Positions 2,965 to 55,814 of a stretch of 56,476 bases of DNA are shown one piece after another. The translations under genes were made by a program, and so were the position numbers. This DNA comes from a virus (taxonomy: Duplodnaviria > Caudoviricetes). The notes under the pieces are model-generated. The model did no database searches and was not told the DNA's origin. It saw only the letters and a list, made by a program, of their open reading frames with translations. The stretch is taken from positions 1 to 56,476 of IMG/VR virus record IMGVR_UViG_3300037180_000017. One strand, written 5' to 3'. Position 1 is the stretch's first letter; the number at the start of each line of letters is the position of its first letter.

Positions 2965-2994
2965 TGAGAGAGGTTTCCAAAAATTCTGGAGGGA

Positions 2995-3612
2995 CTAACT
3001 GTTCGAGTTCATCAGAGGTCCGAGCCGAGCATAGTCCCAGCCACGGACATTTTGAGCCACCATTTGTGGGTTCATGTATTGATACTGACCGTAACCCATG
3101 TCAGTGCAATACATGATGAACTGTGGAGCAAGTAGAGAGGGGTCCGATCCAATGCCGCGAATTGGATAAATCAAAACTGGAGTTCCGACACGTAAAATAT
3201 GTGTGCCATCCATCGCAGGACCGCCAGGCTGACGTTCAGACAAGTTAGTGACGGGAAAAATGACAGTCTGTTGGTTGTATGTCGTACTGCTGCTTGGCGC
3301 TTTAGGTAGATTGAGTAAGTCAACAATCTGATCCCACTTACCCCCCACCAGATAATCAAGCTGGACCCAGTACATTTCGTAATTGGAATCGCTTTCTCCG
3401 TTAGGGCCGGCAGATGTGACCTCTCCAGCTAAACCTTCAGAGATTGGAGTAGGTCTAGGGAGCAAAACGGTACTTCCGTTGGGCATCGTACTGATGCCAC
3501 CACCAAGAACCCCTAGATTTCCGGCACGCCCGATCCCAAGTCCTTCATTGAGATGAGACGCCGAAAACGGATCACCCTGTTTCCACGGAACTGGTTGTCG
3601 AGTTTGTGCCAT
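2995..3612 (-). CDS. Putative minor tail protein
   Basis: 205-aa ORF tightly packed in the tail module. Function inferred from position. Confidence 0.6.
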   Translation of the reverse strand: MAQTRQPVPWKQGDPFSASHLNEGLGIGRAGNLGVLGGGISTMPNGSTVLLPRPTPISEGLAGEVTSAGPNGESDSNYEMYWVQLDYLVGGKWDQIVDLLNLPKAPSSSTTYNQQTVIFPVTNLSERQPGGPAMDGTHILRVGTPVLIYPIRGIGSDPSLLAPQFIMYCTDMGYGQYQYMNPQMVAQNVRGWDYARLGPLMNSNS

Positions 3613-3614
3613 GA

Positions 3615-4478
3615 TTAAGGAGTTGTTGGAGTGGGGTAAGCGCTTGTATAAGGAGTGTCTGCGATTCCAAAAACGCTATAAAAATCAACCATTGGAAATC
3701 TCCCCAATCTAACTACACCAGAACAAGTGGTGGTGTCAGGGGTTCCGTAAGTATAAGCATTTGTGATAAGGGTGTTGAACTTCACAGGATCGATATATAC
3801 GGCCTCTCCGCGAAAATCTTCCATGTAATCGAATGATGACCAATCATATATCGTCTGGGTAGAAAACGTAACATTGTAAGTGTTAGTTATCCCATTATCT
3901 TGAGATTGACCATCTATATCGGTTACTAACCAATACCCCGGCGGAAGACCCTGCCAGTTTACTTGATTTACTGACCTTATGGCCGACTCTACTGCCGCAG
4001 ACGCCTCGAAATTAACTGTTCGGGTGAACGTCAAGCTACGAACTGGAAGAAAGTCACGAAAATGACATAGTTTCGGAATGGTTGGAGGTGTGCCTTCTGC
4101 AGCATTTGGGTTTTTCCAGATATTGTAAACCGGCTGCATCGTGGAAGGGTTGAGAAAGCTGTCGATCTGTTGAAGTGTTGTGTGATCTCGAATGCCGATT
4201 GCACCCATCCAACGATAAACGGTAAAAAGACGCCAAGTAAGAGTGTTCACCGGCTTAACAGATCGGCTTAGGCAAATCCAGTCTGGATATGAGCTATTTA
4301 TCGGCTGACCCTCTTGTGGACAACCAGATAAAGCGAATGGGTTCCAGATGATGCTGGTGTCAGCGACTACAGGTAAATCGGCAGAAGTGAGTTTGATTAA
4401 GCCAGTACGGACATAGTATCCCGACATGGTAGATTTATTCAGTTCCGCCCCACTCACTGTATCCATGTCTAATCGCAT
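3615..4478 (-). CDS. Putative distal tail/hub protein
   Basis: 287-aa beta-rich ORF directly after the tape measure gene. Confidence 0.6.
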   Translation of the reverse strand: MRLDMDTVSGAELNKSTMSGYYVRTGLIKLTSADLPVVADTSIIWNPFALSGCPQEGQPINSSYPDWICLSRSVKPVNTLTWRLFTVYRWMGAIGIRDHTTLQQIDSFLNPSTMQPVYNIWKNPNAAEGTPPTIPKLCHFRDFLPVRSLTFTRTVNFEASAAVESAIRSVNQVNWQGLPPGYWLVTDIDGQSQDNGITNTYNVTFSTQTIYDWSSFDYMEDFRGEAVYIDPVKFNTLITNAYTYGTPDTTTCSGVVRLGRFPMVDFYSVFGIADTPYTSAYPTPTTP

Positions 4479-4508
4479 AATGTTCTCACTTCCAAAAGTT
4501 CTGGAAGA

Positions 4509-7031: not shown

Positions 7032-7328
7032 CTACTCCTCGCTGTCTTCGCCGTTGTCATCGGCGAAAGGATTTTTGTAGTAACTGGGAAGCTGGTACTG
7101 CATCATAATCAGTTGGTTCTCGTCCTGGGTCCGGGCATGTAAGCGATCCTGATCTGTCCAACGATCGTCAAGATAAGCTCGTGTAATACCCGCCAAGCTC
7201 AGATATCCTTCAAACACACCGATCGTACATGAAAGAGGATCAAGGCCGGAATATGCCTGCCGGAACTCGGCAAAAACCGCAAGCCAGTTAAAAGCTAGAG
7301 CTTGGGTGCGCCGCCGGCAGTGGAGGAT
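7032..7328 (-). CDS. Tail assembly chaperone -1 frameshift extension (T-like)
   Basis: The -1 frame from the heptamer is open (ILHCRRRTQALAFNWLAVFAEFRQAYSGLDPLSCTIGVFEGYL...) and joins ORF 7032..7217. Confidence 0.7.
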   Translation of the reverse strand: MLHCRRRTQALAFNWLAVFAEFRQAYSGLDPLSCTIGVFEGYLSLAGITRAYLDDRWTDQDRLHARTQDENQLIMMQYQLPSYYKNPFADDNGEDSEE

Positions 7329-8344: not shown

Positions 8345-8785
8345 CTAAAGCGAAACCGGATGGCCGGCTTCAAAAGTTTCTGCGAATAAATCTCTCAAAT
8401 CGCCGCCGTGCTCCACCAGCTCGTCAAAGGACGCTCCCCAATAAGGTCGAGGTTCAAGGTTGATCTTTTCAAATCCCTTTTCCAAAGCCCTCGCATATTC
8501 CGCGTCAGTAAAAACAGTCACGGATGCCACACCATCTTCGTAGGTCACTTCCGTAGCTCTGATTGATCTTTGCAAACCCTCCACACCACGACGGGCAGCT
8601 ATCCTATCGTCTTTACAAGGCGGTTCTCCTGGAGAAGATCGAATGATCCCGTGATCCGTGTATTCGACGGAAACGTCAATTAGCTCCTGAATCCGATCCA
8701 CATGCTGCTGAGCAAATTCAGTCAAAGCATGTATTGCTGACTGCCGTAAACGAGATTCCAATGCAGCTATAAACTGCTCATTCAT
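8345..8785 (-). CDS. HK97 gp10-like neck/tail-completion protein
   Basis: Motifs 'SSPGEPP..GLQRSI', 'TDAEYARALEKG', 'EPRPYW'. Confidence 0.75.
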   Translation of the reverse strand: MNEQFIAALESRLRQSAIHALTEFAQQHVDRIQELIDVSVEYTDHGIIRSSPGEPPCKDDRIAARRGVEGLQRSIRATEVTYEDGVASVTVFTDAEYARALEKGFEKINLEPRPYWGASFDELVEHGGDLRDLFAETFEAGHPVSL

Positions 8786-9273
8786 AGTTTTGAGGTGTTT
8801 GTGGTAGCGGGATCCGGATTCGCTGCATTGACCACCGGAGTTGTTGACGGGATCGAAGTGACGGTTAGCGGCGGCGACAGCAATGCAGGCGGCTTGTTAG
8901 CTGGATTCACATCAACTTGAACATCCTGATCATCATCTGTGACCGCAGCTTGTTCAGTGAACTTCTTGGCTTCGTCCGATTTCAAATCCGGGAATGGGTT
9001 GTTGGCATCACCGTGGATTTCGATCATCTCGCGGGTAAGCGGTGGTAGATTTTCCTTTTTCAGTTGTGTGACCCCAGACGCCGCAACCTTGGCGATCTCG
9101 CTGCGATGAAGAATCTTCACTTTTTTGGCTTTGCCGCGGAAGTGATTATGCTTCACCAGATGATCGGCAAGCATTTCCGCAGTCACATCCGGTACTCCGC
9201 CAACTCCGCACCCATGCAGGCGCTTGTTGCCTTTGTGATCCGTGACCTCAAGAATAAAAGTGTTGAGCGCCAT
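8782..9273 (-). CDS. Hypothetical protein (head-tail region)
   Basis: 163-aa ORF coupled to its neighbours. Confidence 0.55.
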   Translation of the reverse strand: MALNTFILEVTDHKGNKRLHGCGVGGVPDVTAEMLADHLVKHNHFRGKAKKVKILHRSEIAKVAASGVTQLKKENLPPLTREMIEIHGDANNPFPDLKSDEAKKFTEQAAVTDDDQDVQVDVNPANKPPALLSPPLTVTSIPSTTPVVNAANPDPATTNTSKL

Positions 9274-10401: not shown

Positions 10402-10456
10402 TGCTGACTCCTGAAAGAGTTGAAGGTTATGTTCTTCCCAGAATTTCTGGAAAGGA

Positions 10457-12673: not shown

Positions 12674-12740
12674 GTGAAGCTCCTAATAAAAAATCATGTT
12701 ACCGTGTTCGCCCAGATTGTCCAGAATTTTTGGAAGGGAA

Positions 12741-14333: not shown

Positions 14334-14353
14334 TGTACAACTTTCTGGAAGGG

Positions 14354-16018
14354 TTAAGCTGCCTGTGGCGTCCTAGACCTGCGTTGTTGGGCTTTGCCGG
14401 GTCGAGTTTTAGGATTTCCGTTGCCGTTCGTTGGTCTGCCTCCTTGCGGGTCCGGTTGCTTGTTCGTGTTCAGTTGCTGTTTTTCATCGGCTTTTTCGAC
14501 ACGCTCCGGATCGTACTCGCCGGTGGTCTGAATGTCCATGTTGTTCAGTTCCACTTTCATGTTGATGATCCTGAGCATTTCACGAGCGATAATCGGATCG
14601 TTCATGGCCGCGAGGATCATCGCCTTCATGTAGCCACGTTTATTATCGACGATTGACGGCGGCTGAATGCGAATCTTTCCACGGGCTTCTTCGCCAAAAT
14701 TGAGAACCAGGATCGCATCGACCAATGGTTGGCATTGCCGGGCAAACCCCTGATCTTCAAGTTGTGCAATAGACGCACCGACTTCATTGAGCTCTTCAGT
14801 ATCGGATTTGCCGCCTTGACCACGACCTCCACTTCTGGGAGAACGCAAACTACCTTCAAACATCAAATCTTCCGCGTGCATCATTCTTTTCAGGATGCCT
14901 TCAATAGCCGGTGTTGTGCTGCCGTGGTTGAGCAACGTGGGGGTTACAGCCGCTTTGGTCGCTAATTCCGCAATGATTTTTGCGGTGTTGATGTTACCTT
15001 TGGGATCCGTGGGGATATTCAAACTGGGAAGCCACGCCCCTGGCGACCCATTGGCAAGCGCCCGAATCAAATGTTCACAGACTTTGCGGTACTCCAAAAA
15101 CTCGGGCTTACCATTGCTATCCACTTTCCCGGTCGGGAACGTTCCGCTGGGACTGGTCAAAATCAACTGAATGCCTGTGATCTTGGCCCCTAGTCGCTCA
15201 AGTTGCTGATCGCAGCTAAGCCAATCCCGCCACACTGTCATGCGAAGATTTTCAAGCCAAGAGCGACCATACAAATACCCTGCTTCGGCGTCGTAGGTGT
15301 ACTTCCACGCCCTATATGGCGCTGCTAAGCGAACCACATGCTTATCTGGGTTGAGAATAGCATCCGGAACAAAGTTGATAACACCGCTGAAATTCCCCTT
15401 CTCGTCACGGAGACATTCGGTGATATCCACCAAGAGTGGTTTCATACGGGTAAGCCACGTCATGCTATCTCGAATCTCCCAGATTATTTCTCCAGACTGC
15501 CAGCCAAAATCACGCCCCCTCACAAAGAAGTCATGGAGCAAATCAAAACGAAGAGGGTCCATTTGATCCTGAACTGCGGTTGCCCATTCGTCACTGATTC
15601 CTTTGCCGACCTTTACATATTCCCATCGGTTACAAAGAATATCCGCACAAGAAATAGCACGCACAAGTCGGATGGTTGGATGCTGAAGCATCCAGCGATA
15701 AGTGCGATACGTTCCGGTGTACAAAGCATTGTAACCGGGAAATGCCATCGGGTTGTCCATCGAACCGCCGTTCGAGAACAAAAACGGCATGAATGGGGAC
15801 GAAAGGCCCGGATGAAACATCCCATGTCCGGGGTTTTGTTCACCAGTTGCCTCATCGTGAAGACCCGCATCAGTAGGCTGTCTGGCAAAACGACCTTTAT
15901 CATCCCGATAGGGTGTAGGATAATTGGGAGAATCTTCGCTGCCGCCAATGAAACCCGACATCGGATTGGATACGGCTGCGACCTCAGTTTCCAAAAATTC
16001 TGGAGAACGAGCAATCAT
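14354..16018 (-). CDS. Portal protein (Mu gp29/DUF935-like)
   Basis: Lies between TerL and protease with a TAATG overlap at the TerL stop. Motifs 'GRDFGWQSGEIIW', 'LYGRSWLE', 'PLVDAILVLNFG'. Confidence 0.8.
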   Translation of the reverse strand: MIARSPEFLETEVAAVSNPMSGFIGGSEDSPNYPTPYRDDKGRFARQPTDAGLHDEATGEQNPGHGMFHPGLSSPFMPFLFSNGGSMDNPMAFPGYNALYTGTYRTYRWMLQHPTIRLVRAISCADILCNRWEYVKVGKGISDEWATAVQDQMDPLRFDLLHDFFVRGRDFGWQSGEIIWEIRDSMTWLTRMKPLLVDITECLRDEKGNFSGVINFVPDAILNPDKHVVRLAAPYRAWKYTYDAEAGYLYGRSWLENLRMTVWRDWLSCDQQLERLGAKITGIQLILTSPSGTFPTGKVDSNGKPEFLEYRKVCEHLIRALANGSPGAWLPSLNIPTDPKGNINTAKIIAELATKAAVTPTLLNHGSTTPAIEGILKRMMHAEDLMFEGSLRSPRSGGRGQGGKSDTEELNEVGASIAQLEDQGFARQCQPLVDAILVLNFGEEARGKIRIQPPSIVDNKRGYMKAMILAAMNDPIIAREMLRIINMKVELNNMDIQTTGEYDPERVEKADEKQQLNTNKQPDPQGGRPTNGNGNPKTRPGKAQQRRSRTPQAA

Positions 16019-18435
16019 TACCAAGTTCCTTCAACGGCTGTCGGTGCTTCCGCGGTAAGAGAAATCTGCTGTCCGGCAAGATCGTCAATGTAAGCGATTA
16101 AGTACCGTATGCAATCTGCGCCGTGGTCATTTTTATCTTCTGGTTCTTCCTTGGGGGCTTTACGATCCCCGGTCGCACTCGACTCTTTTACTTTTTTCCA
16201 GATATATCCTTCAAACTCATCCACGGTGCAATACGGCAATCCATTTTCTACTAGTTCGTCATCTCTCTGGACAAGGGCATCTCGCAAAAAGAAAAGTCGT
16301 GGTCGAACCGACCCATCTCCGTGAAGAACCGGACGCAATCGCTCTTTTACAGCTTCGATGCCTTGAAGTTTGTCCTCCTTGTAAGCTGGGAGAGCGATAA
16401 TTCCCTCAGCGTCTAACGTGGCCCGGCCCTCAGCATCGTGGTCAGCAACAAAAGTCTCGATGTCTTCCCCTTCCGATAATTGCTTGATGCCGGGTTCAAC
16501 TAACAGTCTTACTTTGGTATCAGGATCGGTATCCCACACTCCTGACGCATGTTCCGATACGATGCGGTGGCTTTTGTAAATCTCACGGTAGATATAAACC
16601 GTGTTATCATCGCTCTTGTCAATCGCGGCCCAGAGACATACAAAGGGGTTTTGAAACCCGAAGTCGATCCCACCAACTTTGCGCCACTTTTCCCAACCCG
16701 GCGGCATCTTATCTACGATATGCTTTGATCGATCGAAATCGTAAACCGCGCCCTCGGTCGCTGCCCACTTCCCGTCCAGGAGTCTTGCCCGACGAACTCC
16801 TGTAAGAGTATAACTCAGCTTCTTGAGATACTTTTCCCCGGCATCGGTAAACTCATTCAGCCTCATGTCAAATAGCATTGGATTATGCCGATGACGACTG
16901 AGCAGTCTAGTCAATCTGCCTTTGGAGGCAAGAACATTAAGCCAGTGGTTCGGCGATCCCGGATTGCAGTCCATGATAATCTGCTGGAAAGGAATCACAT
17001 TATTGCGCAGCCGAGTCACCAGTAATTCAAAATCGTTGGTGGTGATCTCAGTGGCTTCAAACACACCAATCACATCAAACTCGGTGGACATGATCCGGGC
17101 CGGTTCGTCTAGCCCGCTTATCACAATTTCCGATCCTTTAGGAAGGGTGTAACTGCCTCGTATGCGCCGTGTCGGGCCGTCTCGTACCGGGCTTTTAGTC
17201 GGCAGCACTTTACTCTCAAAAGTCACCAAGACCGATTCTGTCATGGATACCCGCGTTTTGCGGCATAGCAACGCTCTTGCACCATGATAGGTATTCATTA
17301 GATGAAAAATGCGCTCCAGCACGCCCCTGGTTTTCCCGGTGTTGTGGTTCCAAAACCCCTCTGCCAAGTAATGCCCAGCACCTGGAACATGCAGATCGAA
17401 ATAAAAATCTCGCCGAACAAATTCAATCCTTGACACCGTTCCCCACCGGACCTTAGAATGAGTGAATGAAAACTCAACGTGATCTTGTCTTTGACGCTTA
17501 CCGTCAGTGTCTTCATCCGAACTTAGTGGCTGAACGATTGAGTCTGTCATTATACGTTGTAAATCGCTGCCTCCGCGCTCTTGGGATTCCGGCCAATCAT
17601 GGTCGGGTTGGAGTCTGCCACCTTCATTTTCAAAAACTTCGACAGCTAGTTGTTGAAGAACGGTCACTTTCTGATATCGCTCATCAACTTGGAACGAATA
17701 CAAAAACTGTGAAACGCTTCCTTCATACCGCTCAGATTCCGTTTCATCGTTTTGTTCAATCGGGTCAAAATAATCCGTCTTGGAAAGGCGGTCGAATGAT
17801 TGATAAAAACGGTTATGTTCTGATCTGGATTCCGCAACACCCTTTTGCAAATCGACACGGCTACATTCGAGAACATCGGCTAGTAATGGAAAAACACCTT
17901 GGTCGATATCTCGGTCGCCATGAAGTTGTGCATCATAAGAACGGCAAAAAGCAAGATAATCGGCTAAGGAACCTTGAACTTTTCGGATCGAACGCAAATC
18001 ATCTTGCTGCAACTTTGAAGGGCAAAGTCCCAAACTGGACACCGGACGGCAAGCGTCGAATCTTAGCAAGTCATCTCCAACACAAATTGCGTCAAGCCGA
18101 CACCATCCGTTCCGCGTAAGAAACTTATGATGATCTGTGACCGTGATCTCACGGCCATCATCCAGAACCACACGAAATAAATCGGCAACTCCTTTTAAGA
18201 ACGGAACTGTGGCTTGTCGTGGACCATAGAGTGTCATTACCACGGGGGCAAAACCGCACTTCCATAAAGTCTCGATCTGGGTATGACATCCCTTATTGGC
18301 AAGATAAATTCGTGTCTCACCAGCCACACATCCTGCCGGCCCTTCTACAAGCACAGCATCGTCGTGACACTTAAAAAGGTCATAGATCGCACCATAAGGC
18401 TTATAGGGCCGCTGGCCCTCACTAGGTAAGCTCAC
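16018..18435 (-). CDS. terL: Terminase large subunit containing a 330-aa intein (spliced product ~475 aa)
   Basis: Walker A GPAG|TGKT split by the intein; Walker B 'VIGVFEATE', 'MDCNP', nuclease 'GGIDFGF' and 'DHGADCIRY'. Confidence 0.95.
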   Translation of the reverse strand: MSLPSEGQRPYKPYGAIYDLFKCHDDAVLVEGPAGCVAGETRIYLANKGCHTQIETLWKCGFAPVVMTLYGPRQATVPFLKGVADLFRVVLDDGREITVTDHHKFLTRNGWCRLDAICVGDDLLRFDACRPVSSLGLCPSKLQQDDLRSIRKVQGSLADYLAFCRSYDAQLHGDRDIDQGVFPLLADVLECSRVDLQKGVAESRSEHNRFYQSFDRLSKTDYFDPIEQNDETESERYEGSVSQFLYSFQVDERYQKVTVLQQLAVEVFENEGGRLQPDHDWPESQERGGSDLQRIMTDSIVQPLSSDEDTDGKRQRQDHVEFSFTHSKVRWGTVSRIEFVRRDFYFDLHVPGAGHYLAEGFWNHNTGKTRGVLERIFHLMNTYHGARALLCRKTRVSMTESVLVTFESKVLPTKSPVRDGPTRRIRGSYTLPKGSEIVISGLDEPARIMSTEFDVIGVFEATEITTNDFELLVTRLRNNVIPFQQIIMDCNPGSPNHWLNVLASKGRLTRLLSRHRHNPMLFDMRLNEFTDAGEKYLKKLSYTLTGVRRARLLDGKWAATEGAVYDFDRSKHIVDKMPPGWEKWRKVGGIDFGFQNPFVCLWAAIDKSDDNTVYIYREIYKSHRIVSEHASGVWDTDPDTKVRLLVEPGIKQLSEGEDIETFVADHDAEGRATLDAEGIIALPAYKEDKLQGIEAVKERLRPVLHGDGSVRPRLFFLRDALVQRDDELVENGLPYCTVDEFEGYIWKKVKESSATGDRKAPKEEPEDKNDHGADCIRYLIAYIDDLAGQQISLTAEAPTAVEGTW
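17430..17459 (+). promoter_or_regulatory. sigma70-type promoter for the antisense HNH (leaderless)
   Basis: TTGACA (17430-35), N18, TAGAAT (17454-59), then 6 nt to ATG 17466. Confidence 0.7.
17466..18119 (+). CDS. HNH homing endonuclease nested antisense within the intein
   Basis: Two N-terminal HTH-like segments, 'GQNNPSWKGG', and HNH core 'GYIREHRLVMEKHLGRYL...VVHHKNGKKQDNRLRNLEL'. Confidence 0.9.
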   Translation: MKTQRDLVFDAYRQCLHPNLVAERLSLSLYVVNRCLRALGIPANHGRVGVCHLHFQKLRQLVVEERSLSDIAHQLGTNTKTVKRFLHTAQIPFHRFVQSGQNNPSWKGGRMIDKNGYVLIWIPQHPFANRHGYIREHRLVMEKHLGRYLGRHEVVHHKNGKKQDNRLRNLELFGSNANHLAATLKGKVPNWTPDGKRRILASHLQHKLRQADTIRSA

Positions 18436-18895: not shown

Positions 18896-18918
18896 ACTGC
18901 TTCCAGAATTTTTGGAAA

Positions 18919-22596: not shown

Positions 22597-22617
22597 GTTT
22601 TCTGAAAATTCTGGGAG

Positions 22618-24319: not shown

Positions 24320-24367
24320 GATTATTCCAAAAATTCCGGAAATTAAACCGGGATTGCTCCCGGTTTA

Positions 24368-28549: not shown

Positions 28550-28639
28550 GGGGGTTTTGAAAAGAATTTTTCCAAAAATTCTGGAGTGTTAAGATATGAG
28601 GACGTGAAAATAGCGTTTTTATTATGGTTTTTAGATGTT

Positions 28640-31149: not shown

Positions 31150-31181
31150 CAGAATTTTTGGAAGATTATAAAAATCTTCTC

Positions 31182-33171: not shown

Positions 33172-33352
33172 CGGATCTACGCAAACGTTTGCAAAGGTTC
33201 GTGCAACCGTTTGCAAATCGACGATAAGGCTGGAAAGGTAGTCTAGTAGCCTTTCCACCATTACGAGCCGTAAATCGTGATTTTGATTTTAACATGATTG
33301 GCAGCGTTGCCAGTTCCAAAAATTCTGGAAAGCATTTTTCTGGGAGAAGCCA

Positions 33353-36061: not shown

Positions 36062-36244
36062 TTTTCAGTCTCCAAAAATTCTGGAGAAGAAAGGACTGCT
36101 TATGGTGTGATATCTGCAAACTTTGCGGAAGTCCGAATGTTTGACAGCTTCCTGAACCGTGCTGGCAAAGTGCGGTTCAGGTTTGGGAAATGCAAGTAGT
36201 GGTTTACAAAAATTCTGGGAGCCAATTTTTACAGGAGATCAGAT

Positions 36245-38807: not shown

Positions 38808-39079
38808 ACTTTACAAATAATAGAGCGAAGGTCGGGCACTGCCACAACAGGATTCCTGGATTGGTGAAGCGCCGACGCTCGATCAAGTCCAAGACAATCA
38901 TCAGTTTCTTTCGCACCGATCAGGACACTTCTAGTGGTCAGACAGTTACGGGGTTGCCGCGGTACTTGAAATGTGAAGATCACAACTATATCTTCGGGAT
39001 TGAGAACGTTCATAGCGCGAATATGGACCTTTGCGGCTGGTGTCCGCAATGCTCCAAAAATTCTGGAGAACCGCAATGA
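38804..39079 (+). CDS. Small Zn-binding protein
   Basis: CEDH...WCPQC. Confidence 0.55.
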   Translation: MNFTNNRAKVGHCHNRIPGLVKRRRSIKSKTIISFFRTDQDTSSGQTVTGLPRYLKCEDHNYIFGIENVHSANMDLCGWCPQCSKNSGEPQ

Positions 39080-39828: not shown

Positions 39829-39976
39829 TGCGAATGGAAGTGCTGGATATTTTGATCGCTTGTGAGCGGGGGGGGCGACTTCGTGATGAGTTTATTAAAT
39901 GAGGTCACAGGGCCTTGGGGTGGCTCGCGCCACGGCTGCGCAGTGGGGTTAATCCAGAATTTTTGGAAAAAGTGTG

Positions 39977-40025
39977 AAATTTCACACTTTTCCTATTGAC
40001 GCTGCTGTGTCTTGTCGATTATACT
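39977..40025 (+). promoter_or_regulatory. Promoter with upstream palindrome (leaderless)
   Basis: AAATTT-N13-TTGACG-N18-TATACT, 6 nt before GTG 40032. Confidence 0.65.
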
Positions 40026-40031: not shown

Positions 40032-40664
40032 GTGCAATTCGAGAAGGTTAGCAACAAGGCTTGGATCGCTTATGATAAGGCCGACACTTACGAAATTATT
40101 CGTGGTAAACGCCGAGATGGGCATGTCTTCGCCGCCTTCAAGAACGTGCATATCATCATCGGTATTGAAAAGAGCTTTGAAGCCGCTGAACAAGTGTGCC
40201 ATGCTGAGTGCGGCGTACAATGCTGGGCCAGCAACAATTCGGAGAATGAAGAGAAAAACATGCGGGCCAAGGCGGAGCGCCAAGCAAAATCGTTCTTACC
40301 AGCCATGCGGATAATAACGCCGGGTCGTCCCAAACTGTATCGTGGTAAAAAAGACCGGAGCAAAGAAGATGATCGAAGTCAGATCAACAGCCAAGAAACT
40401 AACAGGCCCAGCGCATACAGCGAGTCACGAAGAGATTCAAGCGGCAATGCTGGGCAAGCTGCAAGCACGGAACATTCGGGGCAATCGTCAGCAGACCAAG
40501 TTAGTACAGAAAGGCCGCAGCGGAGTGCCGGCAGGTCGGCCCTTGGGAACTTCAACAGGTCTTCCGGTATATCTGGCGATCGTGTTCACGCTTCAGCAAA
40601 ACGAGAAAGCTCCGAAGAACCGGAAACTGACCGACCAGAAATTAGCGGAGTGGATGCGGTCTGA
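40032..40664 (+). CDS. Hypothetical protein (3' half overlaps next gene)
   Basis: Leaderless GTG; the first ~100 aa look protein-like. Confidence 0.45.
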   Translation: MQFEKVSNKAWIAYDKADTYEIIRGKRRDGHVFAAFKNVHIIIGIEKSFEAAEQVCHAECGVQCWASNNSENEEKNMRAKAERQAKSFLPAMRIITPGRPKLYRGKKDRSKEDDRSQINSQETNRPSAYSESRRDSSGNAGQAASTEHSGQSSADQVSTERPQRSAGRSALGNFNRSSGISGDRVHASAKRESSEEPETDRPEISGVDAV

Positions 40665-40836
40665 GTTTCCTGGAAGAGACACAAAGTTCTGGGACGGAAT
40701 CCAGAATATGCGAACGAATTACAACATCGGGAAATACACCAAAGGAATGATCCCGAAGTTACAAAGCCATCGGTACGATAGTGGCGGCGAGTGCATCGAT
40801 CCAAAGTATAAACGCCGCAAGACAAGCAAGCATTAG
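40369..40836 (+). CDS. Basic putative DNA-binding protein
   Basis: K/R-rich; 'LTDQKLAEWMRSEFPGR...R.NYN...SHRY'. Confidence 0.7.
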   Translation: MIEVRSTAKKLTGPAHTASHEEIQAAMLGKLQARNIRGNRQQTKLVQKGRSGVPAGRPLGTSTGLPVYLAIVFTLQQNEKAPKNRKLTDQKLAEWMRSEFPGRDTKFWDGIQNMRTNYNIGKYTKGMIPKLQSHRYDSGGECIDPKYKRRKTSKH

Positions 40837-41017: not shown

Positions 41018-42064
41018 ATGTCTGCTGCTACAAAGATTGCTGTGGCGGTCGCCGCCTACAAGCATGTCGGGGAGTTCGACCCCAAGGATGTTATCGCCGA
41101 CGCCAAGGAAAACACCCGCAAGGTGTCCCAAGCCGACGTGGCTTCGATGATGGCAAGCATCGAGAAGCATGGTCAGCTTCAGCCCGTCAAGGTGTTCATC
41201 ACCGACAAAGGGAAGCCCAAGTTGGTGTACGGGTTTACGCGGCTCTTTGCCATCGCAAAACACAACGAGAAGAATCCGGATCACCAACTGAAGGTGCGTG
41301 CGGAGATTGTGTCAGCGCAGGAAGCCAAGGCCGCATACCAGATGTCGGTGGTCGAGAACTACCAACGGAAGAACCCAGACCCGATTGAACTGGCCGAAAA
41401 CCAGCGGGCTATGCTGGAAGACTTCGGTATGAGCGAAGAGGAAGTTGCCGGCGTCTTCGGGTGGAACGGAACCGATGGTGTTGAGCGGCTTCGTACTTCT
41501 CAAAAGCTGCTCAAGCTCCCAGCCGCCACGCGCAAATTGGTTTCGACACGGGAACTTCCGACCGTGGCCGCTTTGGAACTGATCGGTTTGTCTGAAAAGG
41601 AGCAAGTCAGCATTATTAAGAATGCGGATCGGTTGGGCACGGGTCGGATCAAAGGCGAAAGTGTCCGCAAGGCATCACGCGCCAAAAAAACCCAAAAGGG
41701 CGGTGATCCCGATAAGGCGATCCCCGTAACCCGCAGCACGATCGTCGATCTCTTTGTCAGTTTGACTGGCCCTGGCGAAGATGCTCCGGTTCGCACGCTG
41801 TTCTCGAAGCTCGAAGCATTCGCCCAAGGCAAGGTGACTCATGCCACGATGGAAAAGATGGCTCGTTCAATGGGCGGCCTGATTAAAGACCCTAAAGCCG
41901 CTCCGAAACCCGAAACGCCTGCCATCAGCGGCGATACCGGGAAAAAGAAGGTCAAGGTCGTGAAGAAAGCAGTGGCGACAAAGACGGCAGCGCCCACAGC
42001 AGCGCCGACACCCGCACCTATTGCTGATCCCGCGGAACCAGAACCCGAATTGGTGACAGCTTAA
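41018..42064 (+). CDS. parB: ParB/Spo0J-family protein
   Basis: 'SIEKHGQLQPV', 'LVYGFTRLFA' (GxxR), 'ENYQRKNPDPIELA', HTH 'FGMSEEEVAGVFG'; AAGGAG SD. Confidence 0.88.
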   Translation: MSAATKIAVAVAAYKHVGEFDPKDVIADAKENTRKVSQADVASMMASIEKHGQLQPVKVFITDKGKPKLVYGFTRLFAIAKHNEKNPDHQLKVRAEIVSAQEAKAAYQMSVVENYQRKNPDPIELAENQRAMLEDFGMSEEEVAGVFGWNGTDGVERLRTSQKLLKLPAATRKLVSTRELPTVAALELIGLSEKEQVSIIKNADRLGTGRIKGESVRKASRAKKTQKGGDPDKAIPVTRSTIVDLFVSLTGPGEDAPVRTLFSKLEAFAQGKVTHATMEKMARSMGGLIKDPKAAPKPETPAISGDTGKKKVKVVKKAVATKTAAPTAAPTPAPIADPAEPEPELVTA

Positions 42065-43089: not shown

Positions 43090-44495
43090 GACAGCCTAAA
43101 CCATATCAACTTCCAGCCCTAAAATATCTGCGAACGCATCGCTTAGCGTTCTTAGGAATGGAGAAACGACTTGGCAAGACCTTTTGTGCGTGTCAATGGG
43201 CCAAGTTCCATAGCGCTGCCCGCGTATTAGTGGTTGCTCCATTATCAGCTATCCCTGGATGGCTAGATGAGATCGAGGCCGACAAGGAAGACATCGCTTG
43301 GGACTTAACCAACCACACCAACCTGAAACAGTGGGTCGAAGCTGAAGGCGACTTGCCCGGGCGGTTCTTCATTACCAACCCTCAAGCGTTGTTTAGACCC
43401 TCCCGTGGAAACGATCTTGGACCTTCCCCCAGAGAGACAGCCCTGTATCCGTGGAGCGCCGTGATCTGGGATGAACTGACCACTATCTATAACGCGCAAA
43501 GTCAGATCAATAAGGTTGCCCGTTTGTGTCTGGGGGATATTCCGCTGCGGCTGGGACTTTCCGGGGAATATGCCCCTGAAACTCCGCTTAACATCTTTGA
43601 ACAAATGCGGTGGGTGTTCGGATCGTTCATGGGCTTCCAGAATTTTTGGAAGTGGCGTAACGCTAACTTTCAAGAGCTTTATTACGATTGGATTCCAAAG
43701 CCGGGCCGCAAGATCGAGATTCGCCGCGTGATTGAAGAGCGGTGTTTTATCCTTTCCAGAAAATCAGCCGGCGTCGTTAATGAGATAGCGTTTGAAAAAC
43801 GTTGCTGTAAGCTGCCGACTGAGATCCAGAGGGTGTACGATCATGCTGAGGTGTATTTTGAGATTCCACCCAACCGCAGACACGGTCTTGCTCGCACAAC
43901 TTTCACAGCTTATGTTCCAGTGCTGCGGAACTGGCTTGTTCAGATTGCTGGCGGCTACCCTAAGTGTTTTGAGCATTTATACAGCGATCACAAGCTGAAG
44001 CTGCTCTGGGAAATCATTCAAGAACATCACACCGAGCAACTTGTGGTGTCTTTCCGTCACAATCTGGAGATAGCACACGCTGCTGAGTTCTTGAAGAAAA
44101 AGCGGATTACAGCGACGATCATTCAAGGAGGGATAGATGTACCTGAAAGACGTAAACGCTGCTCAGCGTTCGCGGCAGGGCGGTTCCAGGTCATTCTAAA
44201 GCAGGCTAAGGTGCATTTTGGGATGAATCTGGCTGCTGCCGACACAATGATTCGGTACAGCATTTCCGATGAGTATAAGGATGTGTCACAAGATATGGAT
44301 AGGATTATCCACCCAGAGAAAAAGCGACCGCTGTTATACATCGATCTGGTGACGGTCAATACGGTAGATGAAGACCTCCATGCTGCCGCCACCATCGACA
44401 AACCGCTGCAAGCAAGATACTGGATGCAGAAGATTCAAACATTGGGGTTGTTGCGAGCTAAGTGCAAATTGCTAAAGGAGCAACAATGTATTTAG
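43086..44495 (+). CDS. SNF2-like (SF2) helicase
   Basis: Q-motif 'PYQ', 'RLGKT', 'LVVAP', 'IWDELT', 'LSGE', 'GMNL', 'QDMDRI' (motifs II and VI diverged). Confidence 0.85.
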   Translation: MRQPKPYQLPALKYLRTHRLAFLGMEKRLGKTFCACQWAKFHSAARVLVVAPLSAIPGWLDEIEADKEDIAWDLTNHTNLKQWVEAEGDLPGRFFITNPQALFRPSRGNDLGPSPRETALYPWSAVIWDELTTIYNAQSQINKVARLCLGDIPLRLGLSGEYAPETPLNIFEQMRWVFGSFMGFQNFWKWRNANFQELYYDWIPKPGRKIEIRRVIEERCFILSRKSAGVVNEIAFEKRCCKLPTEIQRVYDHAEVYFEIPPNRRHGLARTTFTAYVPVLRNWLVQIAGGYPKCFEHLYSDHKLKLLWEIIQEHHTEQLVVSFRHNLEIAHAAEFLKKKRITATIIQGGIDVPERRKRCSAFAAGRFQVILKQAKVHFGMNLAAADTMIRYSISDEYKDVSQDMDRIIHPEKKRPLLYIDLVTVNTVDEDLHAAATIDKPLQARYWMQKIQTLGLLRAKCKLLKEQQCI

Positions 44496-45324: not shown

Positions 45325-45354
45325 CAACGGGCTCCAAAAATTCTAGAGAACATA

Positions 45355-48459: not shown

Positions 48460-48599
48460 GAATGATGGTTTTATCTCCAAAAATTCTGGAGAGGCATTCA
48501 CGTCTCTGGAAGAACGCTAAATTTAAGCGGCTACGTTGCAGCTTGGCGGCTCTGTGGACTAGATGCCAGATGGGATTGTTTTTTCAAGGAACATTGGAC

Positions 48600-49526
48600 A
48601 TGGCAAAACAACAAACGCCAAAATCGGTGTTCGCCAAGCAGTTGGCGGGCATGAAAGAAACATGGAACAAAACCCGTGGTGAGGCGGCCAAGGGCCGTGT
48701 GGAAGTGCCACTGGGCCGAGGATACATCTGCCGCGTGAAAACGGCTCGGCTTGCGGAATATGATCTCAAGGACGAAGACAATAAGTCAACGGGCGAAAAA
48801 TGCCTTGGCGCATTTTTACAGTTCATCGTTCTCAATGATGATTACGCCGGCGAGTCGATCCCTTCATGGCCCAAGTTCGTGTCGGAAGATCGTGTGGAAG
48901 CGTTTCAGCGCGATCTGGTCGCTTTGGGCGTGGCGATCGAAGATGTTGATATGGATAATCTGGAGACGGTCTTGGCCGAACTCCAGCGCACAAAGCCCGG
49001 TTGCAAAATCGACATTGTTTCCGGTAAATGGGAAAATTCTCGCTTCGTCAACATCAAAACCGGGCTGACCGAAGATCAACTTACGGCGATGGGTCTGAAT
49101 GGTGCATCGGAAAGCGAACCCGAAAGGGAACCGACCGCCCCCGAGCCGGAAACGGTGGAAGCGCCGTCCCCAGCGCCGGCGCGTCGTCGTGCCGCCGCTG
49201 CGCCCACGTCCGCACCCGCACCCGCTACTCAAGTCAGCGGCAAGCCTCCCGGTCGTAGTAAGCCCCCCAATAAACCCGCTCCTGCTCCAGACCCCGACGA
49301 ACCGGAAGAAGTGATTGAAGAAACTGTCGAGGAAGAGCCGGAAACGGTCCAAGAGGAAGCCGAGATCGTTGTCGGTAGCCAAGTACAGTGGCAGTCCAAG
49401 GGCAAGGTCAAGACCGGCGTAGTGGTCAAGATCGACGATGCCAAGGGCTACGTCGTGCGCGAAGACGGCGCAACGACCCAGTATATTATCAAGTTCGACT
49501 GGCCAAGCCTTGCAATCATCAGCTAA
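48600..49526 (+). CDS. Putative ssDNA-binding protein (DUF669-like) with Pro/Glu linker and SH3-like tail
   Basis: 'VPLGRGYICRV', 'LQFIVL..DYAG'; follows the Sak4-like gene; AAGGA SD. Confidence 0.65.
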   Translation: MAKQQTPKSVFAKQLAGMKETWNKTRGEAAKGRVEVPLGRGYICRVKTARLAEYDLKDEDNKSTGEKCLGAFLQFIVLNDDYAGESIPSWPKFVSEDRVEAFQRDLVALGVAIEDVDMDNLETVLAELQRTKPGCKIDIVSGKWENSRFVNIKTGLTEDQLTAMGLNGASESEPEREPTAPEPETVEAPSPAPARRRAAAAPTSAPAPATQVSGKPPGRSKPPNKPAPAPDPDEPEEVIEETVEEEPETVQEEAEIVVGSQVQWQSKGKVKTGVVVKIDDAKGYVVREDGATTQYIIKFDWPSLAIIS

Positions 49527-49994: not shown

Positions 49995-52184
49995 ATGGCG
50001 ATTTTGATTCCAAAGCATCGACACTTCATTGACGGCGCTCGGATATTTTATGACACAGAAACCACAGGAAAGTATGCGTGGAAGGGTGATCGACCTTTTG
50101 CGTTCTCTTTCTATAACGAAGCTGGCGACAGTAAAACATTTGAGTTTGAAGTTGATCCCCTCACACGCAAACCAACAATAGTTCCAAAAATTCTGGAATC
50201 CGTCAAACGTCTCATGGAAGACGATACGGTTGCTAAAGCCGGATTTAACGAACCGTTTGACGCTGCAATGTTGTCGATCCCTCATGGAATCACGGTACGC
50301 GGACGCCGCGACGACGTGATGTGGATGTCTCAGATCTGCAACTCTGCCGAGCATAAACACGCTCTGAAACCCCTTGCCGATAAATACACCAAGAACTTAA
50401 CGGGTGAGCTTCGCCTGGATACTGACGATGAAGAAGAGCTTGGCATCGCGGTTAAGGCTTGCCGATTACAAGTCCGTAAGCTCGGATGGAAGATCGCCAA
50501 GGAAGAAACCGGGGAAGGTAAGGACGACAAGGTTTACAAAGCCGATTACTGGCTTCCTGCCGCCGTATCTCGATTAGCCCCTCCAGAAGTACGTAGACCG
50601 CTTCTGGCACGGTTCCCCAGATTATCCACGCTCGCTAATGTCTATGCAACAAAAGATTCTTTGCGAACAATGCTTCTGTTTTTCATGTTTTGCAATGTCA
50701 TGGATGAGGAAAATTTGTGGGAAGTATATGAGCGGGAAATACGCATGGCCCCGGTAACACAGCGGTCGGAGCGGGTGGGCATGAGAATCTTTCCAGAACG
50801 GTGCGATCTTCTGGGAAGAGAATGTCAGACTCGAATGCGTGATCTTCGCATTGAACTCTCCAGAATTTTTGGAGATTTCAATGCTGAGGTTCCTGGAAGT
50901 CGTATTGCTAAATTCATGCACAGTCCCAAGCCGGATGGTCTTGGTTTGCCGGTTCTATCTCGAACGGAAAAGACCCATGATCCGTCCACAAATAAGCAAA
51001 CTCTTGAGTGGATGATACCGCTCGTGGATGCTGTAACTGGGGAAGATAAAAATCCGCTTCGTAAAAATCTTGAGTTTGATCGTCACAATAAGGTGTGGAA
51101 TCACTACATCCGGAAGTTTCAGTCTCATGCTGTTGCTGACGGGTCGGGACAGTTAATTATTCATACTAACTTTCGACAGATTGGAGCAACTACCGGGCGC
51201 ATGAGCATCAGCGGTATTCCACTTCATCAGATACCTAAACGGGCTAAAGAAGGCGACATAATGAAGCGGGCGAGATATCCGCTTGGACCGCGTAAGGGAT
51301 GTGTGTGGATTCACAACGACTTCAAAAGCATTGAACCGCGTATATTGGCTGAAGAGGCGGACGAGAAAGATATCCTTCGGGTATTTAATGATGGCGAAAT
51401 CTGTAACTCTGTTGAAGGTGGATGGACGCACGACCCGTATGAGATTCTTGTGGATCGTGTAGCCTTTGCGACTAAAAAAACGCGGGAATATCTGGACGGG
51501 TTGTTTGAGGCTCGCGGTGGCGCTCGTCAAGTCTGCAAGATCAACTTCCTTGGATGGACCTATGGAGAGGGGATACGAGCATTGGCTGGTCAGATGGGCT
51601 GCTCTTACGACGAAGCCGCTCAGATTATCCACGCACTTCAAACAGCATTTGGCGGTGTTGGACCGTTCATGCAGCAAATGCAGCGCATCGCAGAACGAGA
51701 TGGATTTATTCGCAACCGCTACGGGCGTAAGTGCATGATTCCGCGACCGGCCCGTATCTGGGATGGTGAGTCGGAGGCGTGGGTCTGGGTCAAGTTCTGG
51801 TACAAAGCAACCAATTATTTAATCCAGGGAACTGCCGCCGATATGTTAAAAGAAGCGGCTATTCGTCTGGGTGGGGAAGCTCGTTATTACGACCGTGGTG
51901 GGACACGGCACGAATGCTCCGGGGGCTATCTCAAAGGCTCTGGTGCTGAAATACTTTTGTATATTCACGATGAGGTCATTACGGAAGTCCCTATCAAGCT
52001 GGCGGTCGGCAATGAGAAATTCGTGCGCGGCATCGGAGACTGTATGGCTGACAACCAAGGACGATTCACCAAGGTTGCAACTCCAGTGGATACTAAGGTG
52101 ACTTGGAACTCGTGGAGCGATCCTGAGCCAGTTGAAACATTATGGGGAGCGTCCAAAGAACAACCTCAGTTAGTGGAGGCGTAA
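49995..52184 (+). CDS. polA: DNA polymerase family A with 3'-5' exonuclease
   Basis: Exo 'YDTETTG', 'FNEPFD', 'YATKD'; 'TTGRMS'; motif A 'DFKSIEPR', B 'RQVCKINFLGWTYG', C 'IHDEV'; 'NYLIQGTAAD'. Confidence 0.95.
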   Translation: MAILIPKHRHFIDGARIFYDTETTGKYAWKGDRPFAFSFYNEAGDSKTFEFEVDPLTRKPTIVPKILESVKRLMEDDTVAKAGFNEPFDAAMLSIPHGITVRGRRDDVMWMSQICNSAEHKHALKPLADKYTKNLTGELRLDTDDEEELGIAVKACRLQVRKLGWKIAKEETGEGKDDKVYKADYWLPAAVSRLAPPEVRRPLLARFPRLSTLANVYATKDSLRTMLLFFMFCNVMDEENLWEVYEREIRMAPVTQRSERVGMRIFPERCDLLGRECQTRMRDLRIELSRIFGDFNAEVPGSRIAKFMHSPKPDGLGLPVLSRTEKTHDPSTNKQTLEWMIPLVDAVTGEDKNPLRKNLEFDRHNKVWNHYIRKFQSHAVADGSGQLIIHTNFRQIGATTGRMSISGIPLHQIPKRAKEGDIMKRARYPLGPRKGCVWIHNDFKSIEPRILAEEADEKDILRVFNDGEICNSVEGGWTHDPYEILVDRVAFATKKTREYLDGLFEARGGARQVCKINFLGWTYGEGIRALAGQMGCSYDEAAQIIHALQTAFGGVGPFMQQMQRIAERDGFIRNRYGRKCMIPRPARIWDGESEAWVWVKFWYKATNYLIQGTAADMLKEAAIRLGGEARYYDRGGTRHECSGGYLKGSGAEILLYIHDEVITEVPIKLAVGNEKFVRGIGDCMADNQGRFTKVATPVDTKVTWNSWSDPEPVETLWGASKEQPQLVEA

Positions 52185-52477
52185 TGAGTAAAAACTGCAT
52201 ATCATGTCAGATTAAAAAGCGCCATATTCCGGATCAGTATTGTAAAGAATGTCGTCTATGCCGCGATCTAATGCGTGAACTGGGGTTGTGGCGTATTACA
52301 CCGGATAATTCGATACCGCCCGGCTTTATATCCACCAAATTAGGCATCAAGCTCGATGAAGCTCAATTCATAACGCTTGCGACCGCATTTCGTATTGACT
52401 GCAAACAGCTTTACGTTTTTGTTCCTTTTTCTATGCGATATAGTGGATTCATGGAAAGGACGACCAGTGTTTCTTAA
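52184..52477 (+). CDS. Small Cys-containing protein
   Basis: GGAGG SD; TAATG overlap; CISC...CKEC. Confidence 0.55.
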   Translation: MSKNCISCQIKKRHIPDQYCKECRLCRDLMRELGLWRITPDNSIPPGFISTKLGIKLDEAQFITLATAFRIDCKQLYVFVPFSMRYSGFMERTTSVS

Positions 52478-54694: not shown

Positions 54695-55010
54695 ATGCAA
54701 CCCATTCAACTTGCCGCCATATCTTGCTGCCGTCGAGGCCATATCCGCCGTTCGAGATATGGTTGTAAGCCGTCCTGATATCCATACCGCTTTGGAAGGG
54801 GTGGGTTTTCTGTTCAGATTTTTATGTGCGTGTCCGGAGGCTTACGCCACGATCGTAGATACGATGCCGGAAGGGAGTGTGAAGGGAAAGCTCTATACCA
54901 TCAGTCATGAAATGGCGATGCGAGCCGTTAAACATACCCGGTCGTGTTTATGGTATGCGGTGTTCTTAGGAGCGGATCCGGCCAAGATCGAAAAGGCATG
55001 GCTGAACTGA
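54678..55010 (+). CDS. Hypothetical protein
   Basis: Overlaps the primase stop; last plus-strand gene. Confidence 0.55.
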   Translation: MESHAECNPFNLPPYLAAVEAISAVRDMVVSRPDIHTALEGVGFLFRFLCACPEAYATIVDTMPEGSVKGKLYTISHEMAMRAVKHTRSCLWYAVFLGADPAKIEKAWLN

Positions 55011-55073
55011 TATGTGAAACAGAGGGGTGAGGTTAGTTTACGCAAACGTTTGCAATCCATGCGGCTAGTGATT

Positions 55074-55814
55074 TTAAGGCTTCTGACTGGTTGGGAGTAT
55101 GCCAGAACCCTTCTTAACGGGCTGTGTGGCTGAGATCATGAAATTAGCAGAGGTGATAGTTTGGGAAGTGTTAGGTGAACTCCCAGAATTTTTGGAAGTG
55201 ACCAACGCCAGATAGCTCTGGACCTGTGGGAGTGCGAACAGCTTGATTTGATTCCACCCATGATCTGTGATTGCACTGAGCAGTGCATATTCTGGCTGAC
55301 CAATTAAATCATGTACATGGTTGTGCCACTTAAAAGACCAGAACTGATAAGCCTCTAAGCTGGAGCAATCAGGCGGGTTCTCATCCACATACGCCTGGGC
55401 TTCCGAAAGACATGGATTGCAGCCCATCAGCTTTAGAATCTCCTTTACTCCTTCCAGAGAAGGCGGCATGAGATTGTGGATAGCTTTCCAGATCGCTTGA
55501 CCTTGAAAGCCTGTGATCCGTGAATTGCCGGCCATTTTAGGATGCTGGACAGTAGGATTGATTTGAGTGGGTTTAACGGAAGCTGTTGGCTTGGAAACAG
55601 GTTTGACTGGAATAGCAACAGAGGCTGCTTGACTGCCTGAAAAAACACAACTGGCTATGTTGGTCTGGTTTTGCTGGAAGAAAGCGGTCGTCACGTTGTA
55701 GTAACAAAGTGATTTGTCCGCAGAATGGTCAGCGGCGTTCATGGCATAGAACGATCCTTGCTTGGGAATTGCCTTGATACAACTGGTGAGGTAGGGTTGA
55801 CTGAGATCAGGCAT
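55074..55814 (-). CDS. Erv1/Alr-like (FAD-dependent sulfhydryl oxidase) domain protein
   Basis: 'GQAIWKAIH', 'MGCNPC', 'NPPD', 'FWSFKWHNHVHDLIGQP'; overlaps the stop of the Cys-rich tail gene. Confidence 0.75.
   Translation of the reverse strand: MPDLSQPYLTSCIKAIPKQGSFYAMNAADHSADKSLCYYNVTTAFFQQNQTNIASCVFSGSQAASVAIPVKPVSKPTASVKPTQINPTVQHPKMAGNSRITGFQGQAIWKAIHNLMPPSLEGVKEILKLMGCNPCLSEAQAYVDENPPDCSSLEAYQFWSFKWHNHVHDLIGQPEYALLSAITDHGWNQIKLFALPQVQSYLALVTSKNSGSSPNTSQTITSANFMISATQPVKKGSGILPTSQKP

Follow-up and report, generated by a model that had tools for sequence, protein, structure and literature searches.

The window analysed here is the whole of IMG/VR virus record IMGVR_UViG_3300037180_000017, a linear stretch of 56,476 bp from a tailed phage with an estimated completeness of 91% and a G+C content of 50%, across which a 15-bp quasi-palindrome, TCCAGAATTTTTGGA, recurs at 25 sites. 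Genes read leftward from ~30,900 to 1 encode tail proteins, an S49 protease, the portal, the terminase and a NusG-like antiterminator (PHROG 6386), while rightward genes from ~31,280 to 55,010 encode a ParB-like protein, a helicase, a UDG-family protein, an AAA_24 protein, PolA and a primase. Two further leftward genes, one of them of the Erv1/Alr family, occupy the right end. We found no tRNA genes in the window, no close relatives among cultured phages by megablast or tblastn, and none in IMG/VR by a single-protein portal search. The nearest cultured relatives of the terminase are from Thermobifida and Streptomyces phages, at 32-41% identity across half the protein.

A 15-bp palindrome is dispersed across the genome

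The word occurs exactly 15 times in the window (seven copies on the + strand and eight on the - strand), against 0.00 expected from 100 dinucleotide shuffles. Allowing up to three mismatches returned 46 rows against 2.44 expected, but these fall at only 29 distinct places, exact sites being scored on the opposite strand as well. With a weight matrix built from the sites, 25 of them score 19.0-27.9 bits and are separated by a clean break from the remainder; the next four places (37792, 15093, 18261 and 8313) score 10.9-15.0 bits and may be chance. The highest of these, 37792-37806 (CGCAGAATTTTTCGA, 15.0 bits), departs from the consensus at positions 2 and 14, which change as a symmetric pair, and at position 1. 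The first-pass annotation, made from the sequence alone, had described 15 exact and about ten near copies roughly every 2 kb and had called for a count against shuffled sequence, and its description agrees with these figures. Mean spacing is 2175 bp and is more even than random placement (coefficient of variation (CV) 0.64, P=0.014), also under a junction-constrained null in which positions were drawn from real gene junctions (P=0.035). The largest gap between sites is not unusual (P=0.20), and density is higher in the early region, with one site per 1.2 kb between 28 and 40 kb and ~1 per 3 kb elsewhere.

The site has a 7-1-7 layout, TCCAGAA-T-TTTTGGA, whose two halves read TCCAGAA and TCCAAAA. 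This asymmetry is fixed: 24 of the 25 copies keep G at position 5 and T at position 11, the copy at 10437 being the sole symmetric one. Conservation in the flanks stops beyond about 2 nt.

Sites concentrate between genes. Using longest open reading frame (ORF) gene calls, which are deliberately generous to genes, we found that 12 of the 25 sites are fully non-coding, compared with 6.2% of 15-nt windows (P=8e-9), and that 18 are at a junction or non-coding, compared with 18.6% (P=9e-9). Several of the nominally genic copies (e.g. those at portal codon 7, 18902 and 31148) probably lie between genes too. The copy at the portal start is probably intergenic because portal homologues align only from about residue 31-38, and 31148 is placed in a divergent control region, given that ATG 31283 is the most likely start of the real gene. 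Five copies lie deep within genes (the NusG-like gene, the helicase, PolA twice and Erv1); together with the portal codon 7 copy, they occupy three reading frames among the copies of one orientation and two among those of the other. Thirteen sites point the same way as local transcription and 12 the opposite way. The array is thus real and non-random, with a preference for gene junctions, and its sites most likely act as double-stranded DNA kept by selection on the DNA itself. Such selection had been proposed in the first-pass annotation, and the use of three frames, both orientations and the intergenic enrichment bear it out.

Related phages carry their own word at shared positions

Portal homologues of the window are present in public data. 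We recovered related IMG/VR records by portal and capsid protein alignment and searched those records for words by k-mer counting. One relative, G001, is a 62,217-bp genome with direct terminal repeats (100% complete) that shares 48% identity with the window in portal and 61% in capsid. A 15-bp palindrome of its own, ACCGAAAATTTCGGT, is found at 25 places when two mismatches are allowed (14 exact), again with spacing more even than random placement (CV 0.53, P=0.0006). L125, an 11-kb fragment (portal 54%, capsid 63%), carries six copies built from CCGAAA and CCAAAA halves. The word therefore differs by lineage, reading TCCAGAA-T-TTTTGGA in the window, ACCGAAA-A-TTTCGGT in G001 and CCGAAA/CCAAAA mixes in L125, whose sites are mostly mixed, like those of the window, whereas those of G001 are mostly symmetric. 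A family pattern, CC[AG][AG]A[AT][AT][AT]T[CT][CT]GG, matches 22 times in the window, 21 times in G001, six times in L125 and once in the 7-kb fragment L150, and not at all in 15 other related records (shuffle means at most 0.5). Within two mismatches, the window's own word is absent from the related IMG/VR records except for two single chance-level matches.

For ten of the 25 window sites, G001 has a site at the corresponding position. The local word is present in the window, G001 and L125 alike at four junctions: g18919/g18422, terminase/portal, protease/scaffold and capsid/next gene. Further window/G001 pairs are 4491/15657, 22601/35869 (a probable counterpart), 39953/53353, 45333/59069 and 48476/868, plus a site in PolA. 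On the aligned sequences, the PolA pair is the most telling case of a shared position: LSRIFG (CTC TCC AGA ATT TTT GGA) in the window lies opposite LTKIFG (CTG ACC AAA ATT TTC GGT) in G001, within a stretch that is only 34% identical between the two and in which more distant relatives are unalignable. Because positions are common to relatives only ~45% identical in protein, the array is ancient, older than the split of these phages, and the word has been replaced everywhere in each lineage. A concerted change of word at kept positions is what would be expected when many sites follow one trans-acting reader. The first-pass annotation had set the search for a co-varying array in relatives beforehand as the comparison that could refute it; G001 and L125 have such arrays, with a changed word at the same positions.

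The window also contains, at 23519-23533, a lone copy of the palindrome in the form used by the relatives (TCCGAAATTTTCGGT); it lies at what is probably a gene junction and may be a relic of the ancestral word. Clustered repeats in other relatives were set aside as local and not dispersed. These are CCAGGCCTG in L157 and L158, a 10-bp tandem array in G003 (15470-15545), and 38-bp repeats at both ends of G004 (1-100 and 55777-55864), which fit its terminal repeats.

Positions of the individual sites

In the leftward block, the exact copy at 2976-2990 (-) lies in a 30-nt gap separating two tail-region genes, and 4491-4505 (-, one mismatch) lies in another 30-nt intergenic gap. The fully symmetric copy, 10437-10451 (+, two mismatches, CCAGAA/CCAGAA), is just past the major capsid gene (22674 in G001). 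Three exact copies follow: 12720-12734 (+) at the protease/scaffold junction (G001 24786), 15990-16004 (-) at the terminase/portal junction, in codon 7 of the longest portal ORF (SPEFLET; G001 28273), and 18902-18916 (+), with an ATG 6 nt downstream (G001 30543). All four of these last sites have L125 counterparts. The copy at 22601-22615 (-, three mismatches, 19.0 bits) lies in a 21-nt intergenic gap, 24326-24340 (-, one mismatch) is intergenic with an ATG 6 nt downstream, 27198-27212 (+, two mismatches) is at the 5' end of ORF 26912-27220, and 28300-28314 (-, one mismatch) encodes PRIFG at codon 30 of the NusG-like antiterminator gene.

Around the divergent control region, the exact copy at 28571-28585 (-) lies 21 nt upstream of a promoter-like TTGACG-16-TACAGT on the - strand (9/12 promoter matches), and the exact copy at 31148-31162 (+) abuts 12 heptamer repeats. 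To its right, 33315-33329 (-, exact) is intergenic with an ATG 23 nt downstream; 34435-34449 (+, one mismatch) lies among doubtful small ORFs; and 34933-34947 (+, exact) is intergenic, just downstream of a promoter-like TTGACA-18-AAAAAT (34869-34898). Two more intergenic copies lie 9 nt past a stop codon (36071-36085, -, exact) and 25 nt upstream of a Cys-repeat gene (36205-36219, -, two mismatches). The exact copy at 39053-39067 (-) covers the final codons of ORF 38804-39079, with the next ATG 8 nt downstream, and that at 39953-39967 (+) is centred ~72 nt upstream of the predicted start of the promoter leading into the basic-protein and ParB genes.

In the replication genes and beyond, 43636-43650 (+, exact) encodes FQNFW at codon 184 of the helicase gene, 45333-45347 (-, one mismatch) lies in a 30-nt gap upstream of the UDG-family gene, and 48476-48490 (-, exact) covers codons 5-9 of ORF 48462-49526, its G001 counterpart lying at the same gene start. 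PolA contains two exact copies, 50183-50197 (-) at codon 63 (PKILE), which has no G001 counterpart, and 50859-50873 (+) at codon 289 (SRIFG, opposite TKIFG at the orthologous G001 site). The last copy, 55182-55196 (+, one mismatch), encodes SKNSG within the Erv1/Alr-family gene.

The first-pass annotation had read all of these in-gene peptides correctly. Its list of copies filling tiny intergenic gaps holds for 2976, 4491, 12720, 22601, 24326 and 45333, which are fully intergenic; 10437 and 18902 are not so by longest-ORF calls, although they lie upstream of better-placed ATGs.

An orphan ParB-like protein is a candidate binder

A gene at 41018-42064 (+) encodes a predicted protein of the ParB/Noc/KorB type, with an N-terminal ParB domain, a helix-turn-helix (HTH) and a disordered tail rich in Lys, Ala and Pro (residues 288-348). 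It matches Pfam HTH_ParB (PF17762, E=1.9e-6), weakly PF02195, and a ParB-like PHROG (E=2.4e-15), and among PDB sequences it best matches the H. pylori Spo0J-parS complex 4UMK (E=5e-10). The structure model has a mean predicted local distance difference test score (pLDDT) of 72, with values of at least 84 over about residues 41-220, and its top Foldseek matches are ParB, Noc-DNA and KorB-KorA-DNA structures (E 2e-9 to 2e-7). The ENxQR box is kept (ENYQR). The gene follows a sigma-70-like promoter, TTGACG-18-TATACT (39996-40025, +, 10/12 promoter matches), and a gene for a small basic protein. Sites of the array stand beside this operon in both genomes: 39953 in the window, and 53353 and 54218 flanking the same genes in G001.

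We profiled 76 window ORFs against the relatives by tblastn. Among these relatives, only G001 has the ParB-like gene (44% identity); G003, G004 and G005 (95-100% complete), G007 (100%) and the partial records G002, G006, G008, G009 and G010 lack it. It therefore occurs in 2/2 complete array-bearing genomes and 0/4 array-free near-complete genomes, in keeping with its place as the first of the binders proposed in the first-pass annotation. The recognition-helix region reads DGVERLRTSQKLL in the window and DGVDWVNQIQKLL in G001, with flanks otherwise conserved. The closest relatives of the protein, P0002, P0003 and P0004 (58, 54 and 44% identity), lie on Logan contigs of up to 60 kb; P0002 and P0003 share E-[KR]-L-R with the window protein. 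An alignment scan of IMG/VR recovered only G001, a scan of JGI metagenomes gave no match, and a scan of species genomes gave one weak match, in a Clostridia metagenome-assembled genome; the portal scan of metagenomes returned G001 plus one distant 12-kb contig only.

We found no ParA-type partner for this protein, with no AAA_31 match in the window and no CbiA match in the window or G001 (controls positive in 14/14 genomes). There is also no Phage_integrase match for a tyrosine integrase in the window and no Resolvase match for a serine recombinase in the window or G001, nor did we find a repressor module in the window; the window record is 91% complete, so that a gene could be missing. With no ParA, tyrosine integrase or serine recombinase, the phage looks lytic and its ParB an orphan. 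Plasmid-type segregation, one of the roles suggested in the first-pass annotation, and lysogenic silencing are therefore unlikely functions of the array.

A second motif tracks the neighbouring basic protein

A second motif, YYCCAGAR (CCTTCCCCAGAAA in G001, TTTTTCTCCAGAAGATGC in G003), is enriched 2.1-5.6 fold in the window, G001, L125, G003, G004 and G005, and is not enriched in the more distant G006-G009 (0.8-1.4 fold). Window examples lie at 14343, 9288, 23491, 27231, 6264/6280, 35049/35065 and 50792/50809. The motif is often 10-20 nt ahead of start codons and at times forms inverted pairs; in G001 it is often 12-16 nt ahead of start codons and adjoins the palindrome at ~4 places.

Its distribution matches that of the very basic 164-residue protein (34 K+R, 12 D+E) encoded just upstream of ParB at 40342-40836 (+), which is present in all relatives with the second motif, including those without an array. 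This protein, as the ORF 40369-40836, had been another proposed binder of the palindrome; as it is also present in array-less relatives, it fits the second motif better. A Foldseek search gave no match at E<=0.001, and VIA-align scores did not exceed Z 3.7, many unrelated small domains of helical and winged-helix type being tied. To judge from the shared core, the window's 15-mer may be a composite of two elements.

Promoters and other features of the window

Promoter-like matches between 28000 and 41000 number 21, against 14.2 (standard deviation 3.5) in shuffles, which is not clearly above expectation. A reading of the sites as intrinsic terminators was rejected, as the same interval holds 13 terminator-like matches and 10 sites and none of the matches coincides with a site. 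Twelve tandem heptamers (CATGCTC/CATGCGC/CATGCAC) at 31066-31149 run directly into site 31148 within the 368-bp divergent control region, where the strongest promoter-like match (30951-30923, - strand, 11/12) and two more short dyads are also found. A perfect 24-bp palindrome, AAAAGTGTGAAATTTCACACTTTT (39968-39991), follows site 39953 and precedes the -35 box of the 39996 promoter; it may be a separate operator.

The 805-residue terminase ORF (16018-18435, -) matches large terminases only in its C-terminal ~440 residues, with a coverage of 53-56% in cultured phages and relatives, leaving the N-terminal 365 residues unexplained. This tailed phage also encodes, at the right end of the window (55074-55814, -), an Erv1/Alr-family sulfhydryl oxidase domain (PF04777, E=2.4e-6) for which the related records have no homologue. 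The Cys-repeat gene at 36245-37201 (+) encodes a 318-residue protein whose middle ~170 residues are a run of Cys-Ser-X tripeptides (CSDCSGCSRCLD...), which derive from ~50 tandem 9-bp units (repeats at about 36352-36862); its N- and C-terminal parts match PHROGs of unknown function.

Discussion

That the array consists of DNA sites for a dimeric protein is well supported. The ParB-like protein is the leading candidate for that protein, suggested by its co-occurrence with the array and with a chance that we put at about even or slightly above. We consider it an even bet that the sites serve as binding or loading sites for the phage's own ParB-like protein, acting genome-wide in lytic growth. 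In this model, the protein would be made early from the sigma-70-type promoter at 39996, and a dimer would bind the 25 sites through HTH contacts with the 7-1-7 sequence. From sites spaced about one per 2.2 kb, ParB would then spread, slide or bridge, helped by its Lys/Ala/Pro-rich tail, and the whole phage chromosome would be acted on at once during lytic growth. The outcome could be KorB-like promoter damping, or the organisation or marking of replicating DNA.

Several observations weigh against this assignment. Eleven other ORFs are likewise confined to the window and G001, and the link between ParB and the array comes from one clade, effectively a single evolutionary event. Known ParB-family sites are of even length, as is the 16-bp KorB operator OB (PMC11790492), so that an odd-length, asymmetric 7-1-7 site is atypical of the family, and asymmetry fixed in 24 of 25 copies is not explained by a symmetric homodimer. 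The arginine patch GERR, intact in canonical ParBs, is degenerate here, reading GFTR (GYTR in relatives) with one Arg kept, and clamping dependent on cytidine triphosphate (CTP) is consequently uncertain for this protein. The left half of the array word (yyTCCAGAA) equals the core of the clade-wide second motif, so that a second factor may be involved at the sites. Promoter links are few: of the three sites that the first-pass annotation placed upstream of -35 boxes, 39953 and 28571 are so placed, 31148 has no promoter-like match downstream, and no other promoter link was established for the array. Finally, five of the 12 sites folded as RNA form hairpins with z <= -2, whereas the other seven do not.

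Some of these points would also be explained if ParB were a bystander and the sites were read by a different sequence-specific binder, either another phage protein (27242-27742, 34033-34338, 48462-49526 or the zinc-ribbon-like 52142-52477) or a host regulator. The window and G001 (50% and 60% GC) probably infect different hosts, and regulators could differ between them. We judge a different binder unlikely. Among the window proteins scanned, a significant match to a DNA-binding domain was found for ParB alone of the 12 ORFs that share its distribution (for five of the 12 a single library was scanned, and for 7032-7217 and 8782-9273 none), and the sites flank the ParB operon in both genomes. 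For a host factor in particular, neither word is multi-copy in other IMG/VR contigs among the matches listed, which argues against a site common to phages of the same host.

Lower still is the probability that the word works in single-stranded form, as an mRNA stem-loop between cistrons (affecting processing, stability or ribosome-binding-site control) or as a DNA hairpin in replication priming. Most copies do lie between a stop codon and the next start, and the 3' TGGA(A/G) could act as a Shine-Dalgarno sequence at 18902, 24326 and 39053. Site 50859 sits within a 35-nt inverted repeat (-15.9 kcal/mol, z=-5.06), and Okazaki fragments have a length of the order of ~2 kb, comparable to the site spacing. 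However, the other seven of the 12 folded sites are no better than shuffles, and neither the loop nor the stem varies within a genome. In variant copies, pairs are lost with no compensating change, with C at position 1 in six of 25 and A at position 15 in 24 of 25, and the orientation that puts G-U pairs on the transcript is no commoner than the one that puts A-C mismatches there (13 vs 12). The next start codon is at a variable distance of 4 to 46 nt, and copies also occur upstream of promoters and deep within genes.

Less probable than either is a reading in which another process acting on DNA targets the word or produces it in passing; the word would then be a host uptake or repeat sequence, a hot spot for recombination, or a mark for site-specific base modification guided by a ParB-type activator. 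Phage ParB-like activators of thymine dioxygenases were reported in 2026 and the site centre is T-rich, but those activators are described as having no obvious DNA-binding domain (PMC13229309) whereas the window ParB has an HTH, no Pfam dioxygenase was found among 40 window proteins scanned, Tet_JBP had no match in the window (a weak negative, as control genomes were equally silent), and flanks are unconserved beyond ~2 nt. The unconserved flanks also rule out a mobile element. An uptake sequence or host repeat was rejected because, in IMG/VR, the window's word is single-copy in all 80 listed of 115 stretches and the G001 word is multi-copy only in G001 in a complete scan (75 stretches).

The closest published case is that of the Cluster O mycobacteriophages (Corndog and relatives), described in 2015 as carrying 34 copies of the 17-bp TGTTCGGNNNCCGAACA in a 7-3-7 layout, 14 in short intergenic gaps, 10 at gene 5' ends and 10 in gene interiors (PMC4351075). 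Like the window, these phages have more than 30 copies (for the window, more than 20) of one dyad-symmetric word across a genome of comparable scale, with an A/T-rich centre, no meaningful orientation bias and mixed intergenic and genic positions, most sites being listed as away from promoters (PMC4351075). They are not obviously temperate and have no lysogens, they encode a ParB-like gp90 without parAB, and their host lacks the word; a dimeric binder was proposed by the authors, who left the function open and thought gp90 unlikely to act in genome stability (PMC4351075). The word and its layout differ from the 7-1-7 site of the window, and the phage lineages are unrelated. Since the word differs and the nearest cultured terminase relatives are Thermobifida and Streptomyces phages, the window array is an analogue of the Cluster O repeats and not a member of them.

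The best-understood working model is KorB and its operator OB. KorB is a CTPase clamp of the ParB family; the operators at which it loads may be close to promoters or distant from them, it can slide as far as 1.5 kb, and the small DNA-binding partner KorA locks it (PMC11790492). In the IncP-1 plasmid RK2, as in the window, an HTH protein of the ParB family accompanies a palindromic operator scattered over a replicon of ~60 kb, although OB is symmetric (PMC11790492). The small basic protein encoded beside the window ParB would be a putative counterpart of KorA, and the KorB-KorA-DNA structure 8QA9 is among the Foldseek matches of the ParB model. KorB also serves partition with a ParA-type partner, which we did not find in the window, and RK2 carries 12 OB sites, fewer than the 25 described here. 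Noc of Bacillus subtilis, whose structures 7OL9 and 7NFU are also among the Foldseek matches, is similarly an orphan ParB paralogue without ParA that acts on the whole chromosome from many dispersed palindromic NBS sites. Noc tethers DNA to the membrane; it differs in being a cellular protein, and the NBS sequence is unrelated to the window word.

Stoperators are asymmetric words oriented with transcription and bound by the immunity repressor of a temperate phage. Those of Cluster A mycobacteriophages resemble the window array in having two to three dozen copies of a short word across a phage genome, many in short intergenic gaps (PMC4351075). We rejected a stoperator reading of the array, as its orientation is mixed, a distinction that the first-pass annotation had already drawn, and the window yielded neither an integrase nor a repressor module.

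A more far-reaching version of the ParB model is possible, and we hold it to be doubtful. The phage would mark its whole chromosome with its own relative of a centromere protein, an orphan ParB that would load at ~25 roughly even sites and coat or organise all of the genome, and site and recognition helix would co-evolve to give each lineage a private 'self' word. An older layer of YYCCAGAR and the small basic protein may act with it, as KorA does in locking KorB, and in this phage the two words would have merged into the 15-mer; such a composite of two words would explain the fixed asymmetry. Together with the Cluster O repeats, the array would then represent a widespread undescribed class of genome-wide ParB systems in phages.

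Lytic phages commonly carry orphan ParB-like genes to which, to our knowledge, no function has been assigned. We found no published lytic-phage ParB with a genome-wide array of sites in the literature, supplements of the cited papers aside. Dispersed dyad repeats in phage genomes have been on record, unexplained, since the 2015 Cluster O paper, whose five phages are near-identical, so that a change of word between relatives is invisible among them (PMC4351075). The lineage described here adds relatives distant enough to show that the array is ancient, positions kept while the word changes in concert, and a ParB-type gene whose presence tracks the array. If the proposed role of this protein is true, the activities of the ParB family would come to include, beyond segregation and the silencing of plasmids, the control of entire genomes in lytic viruses.

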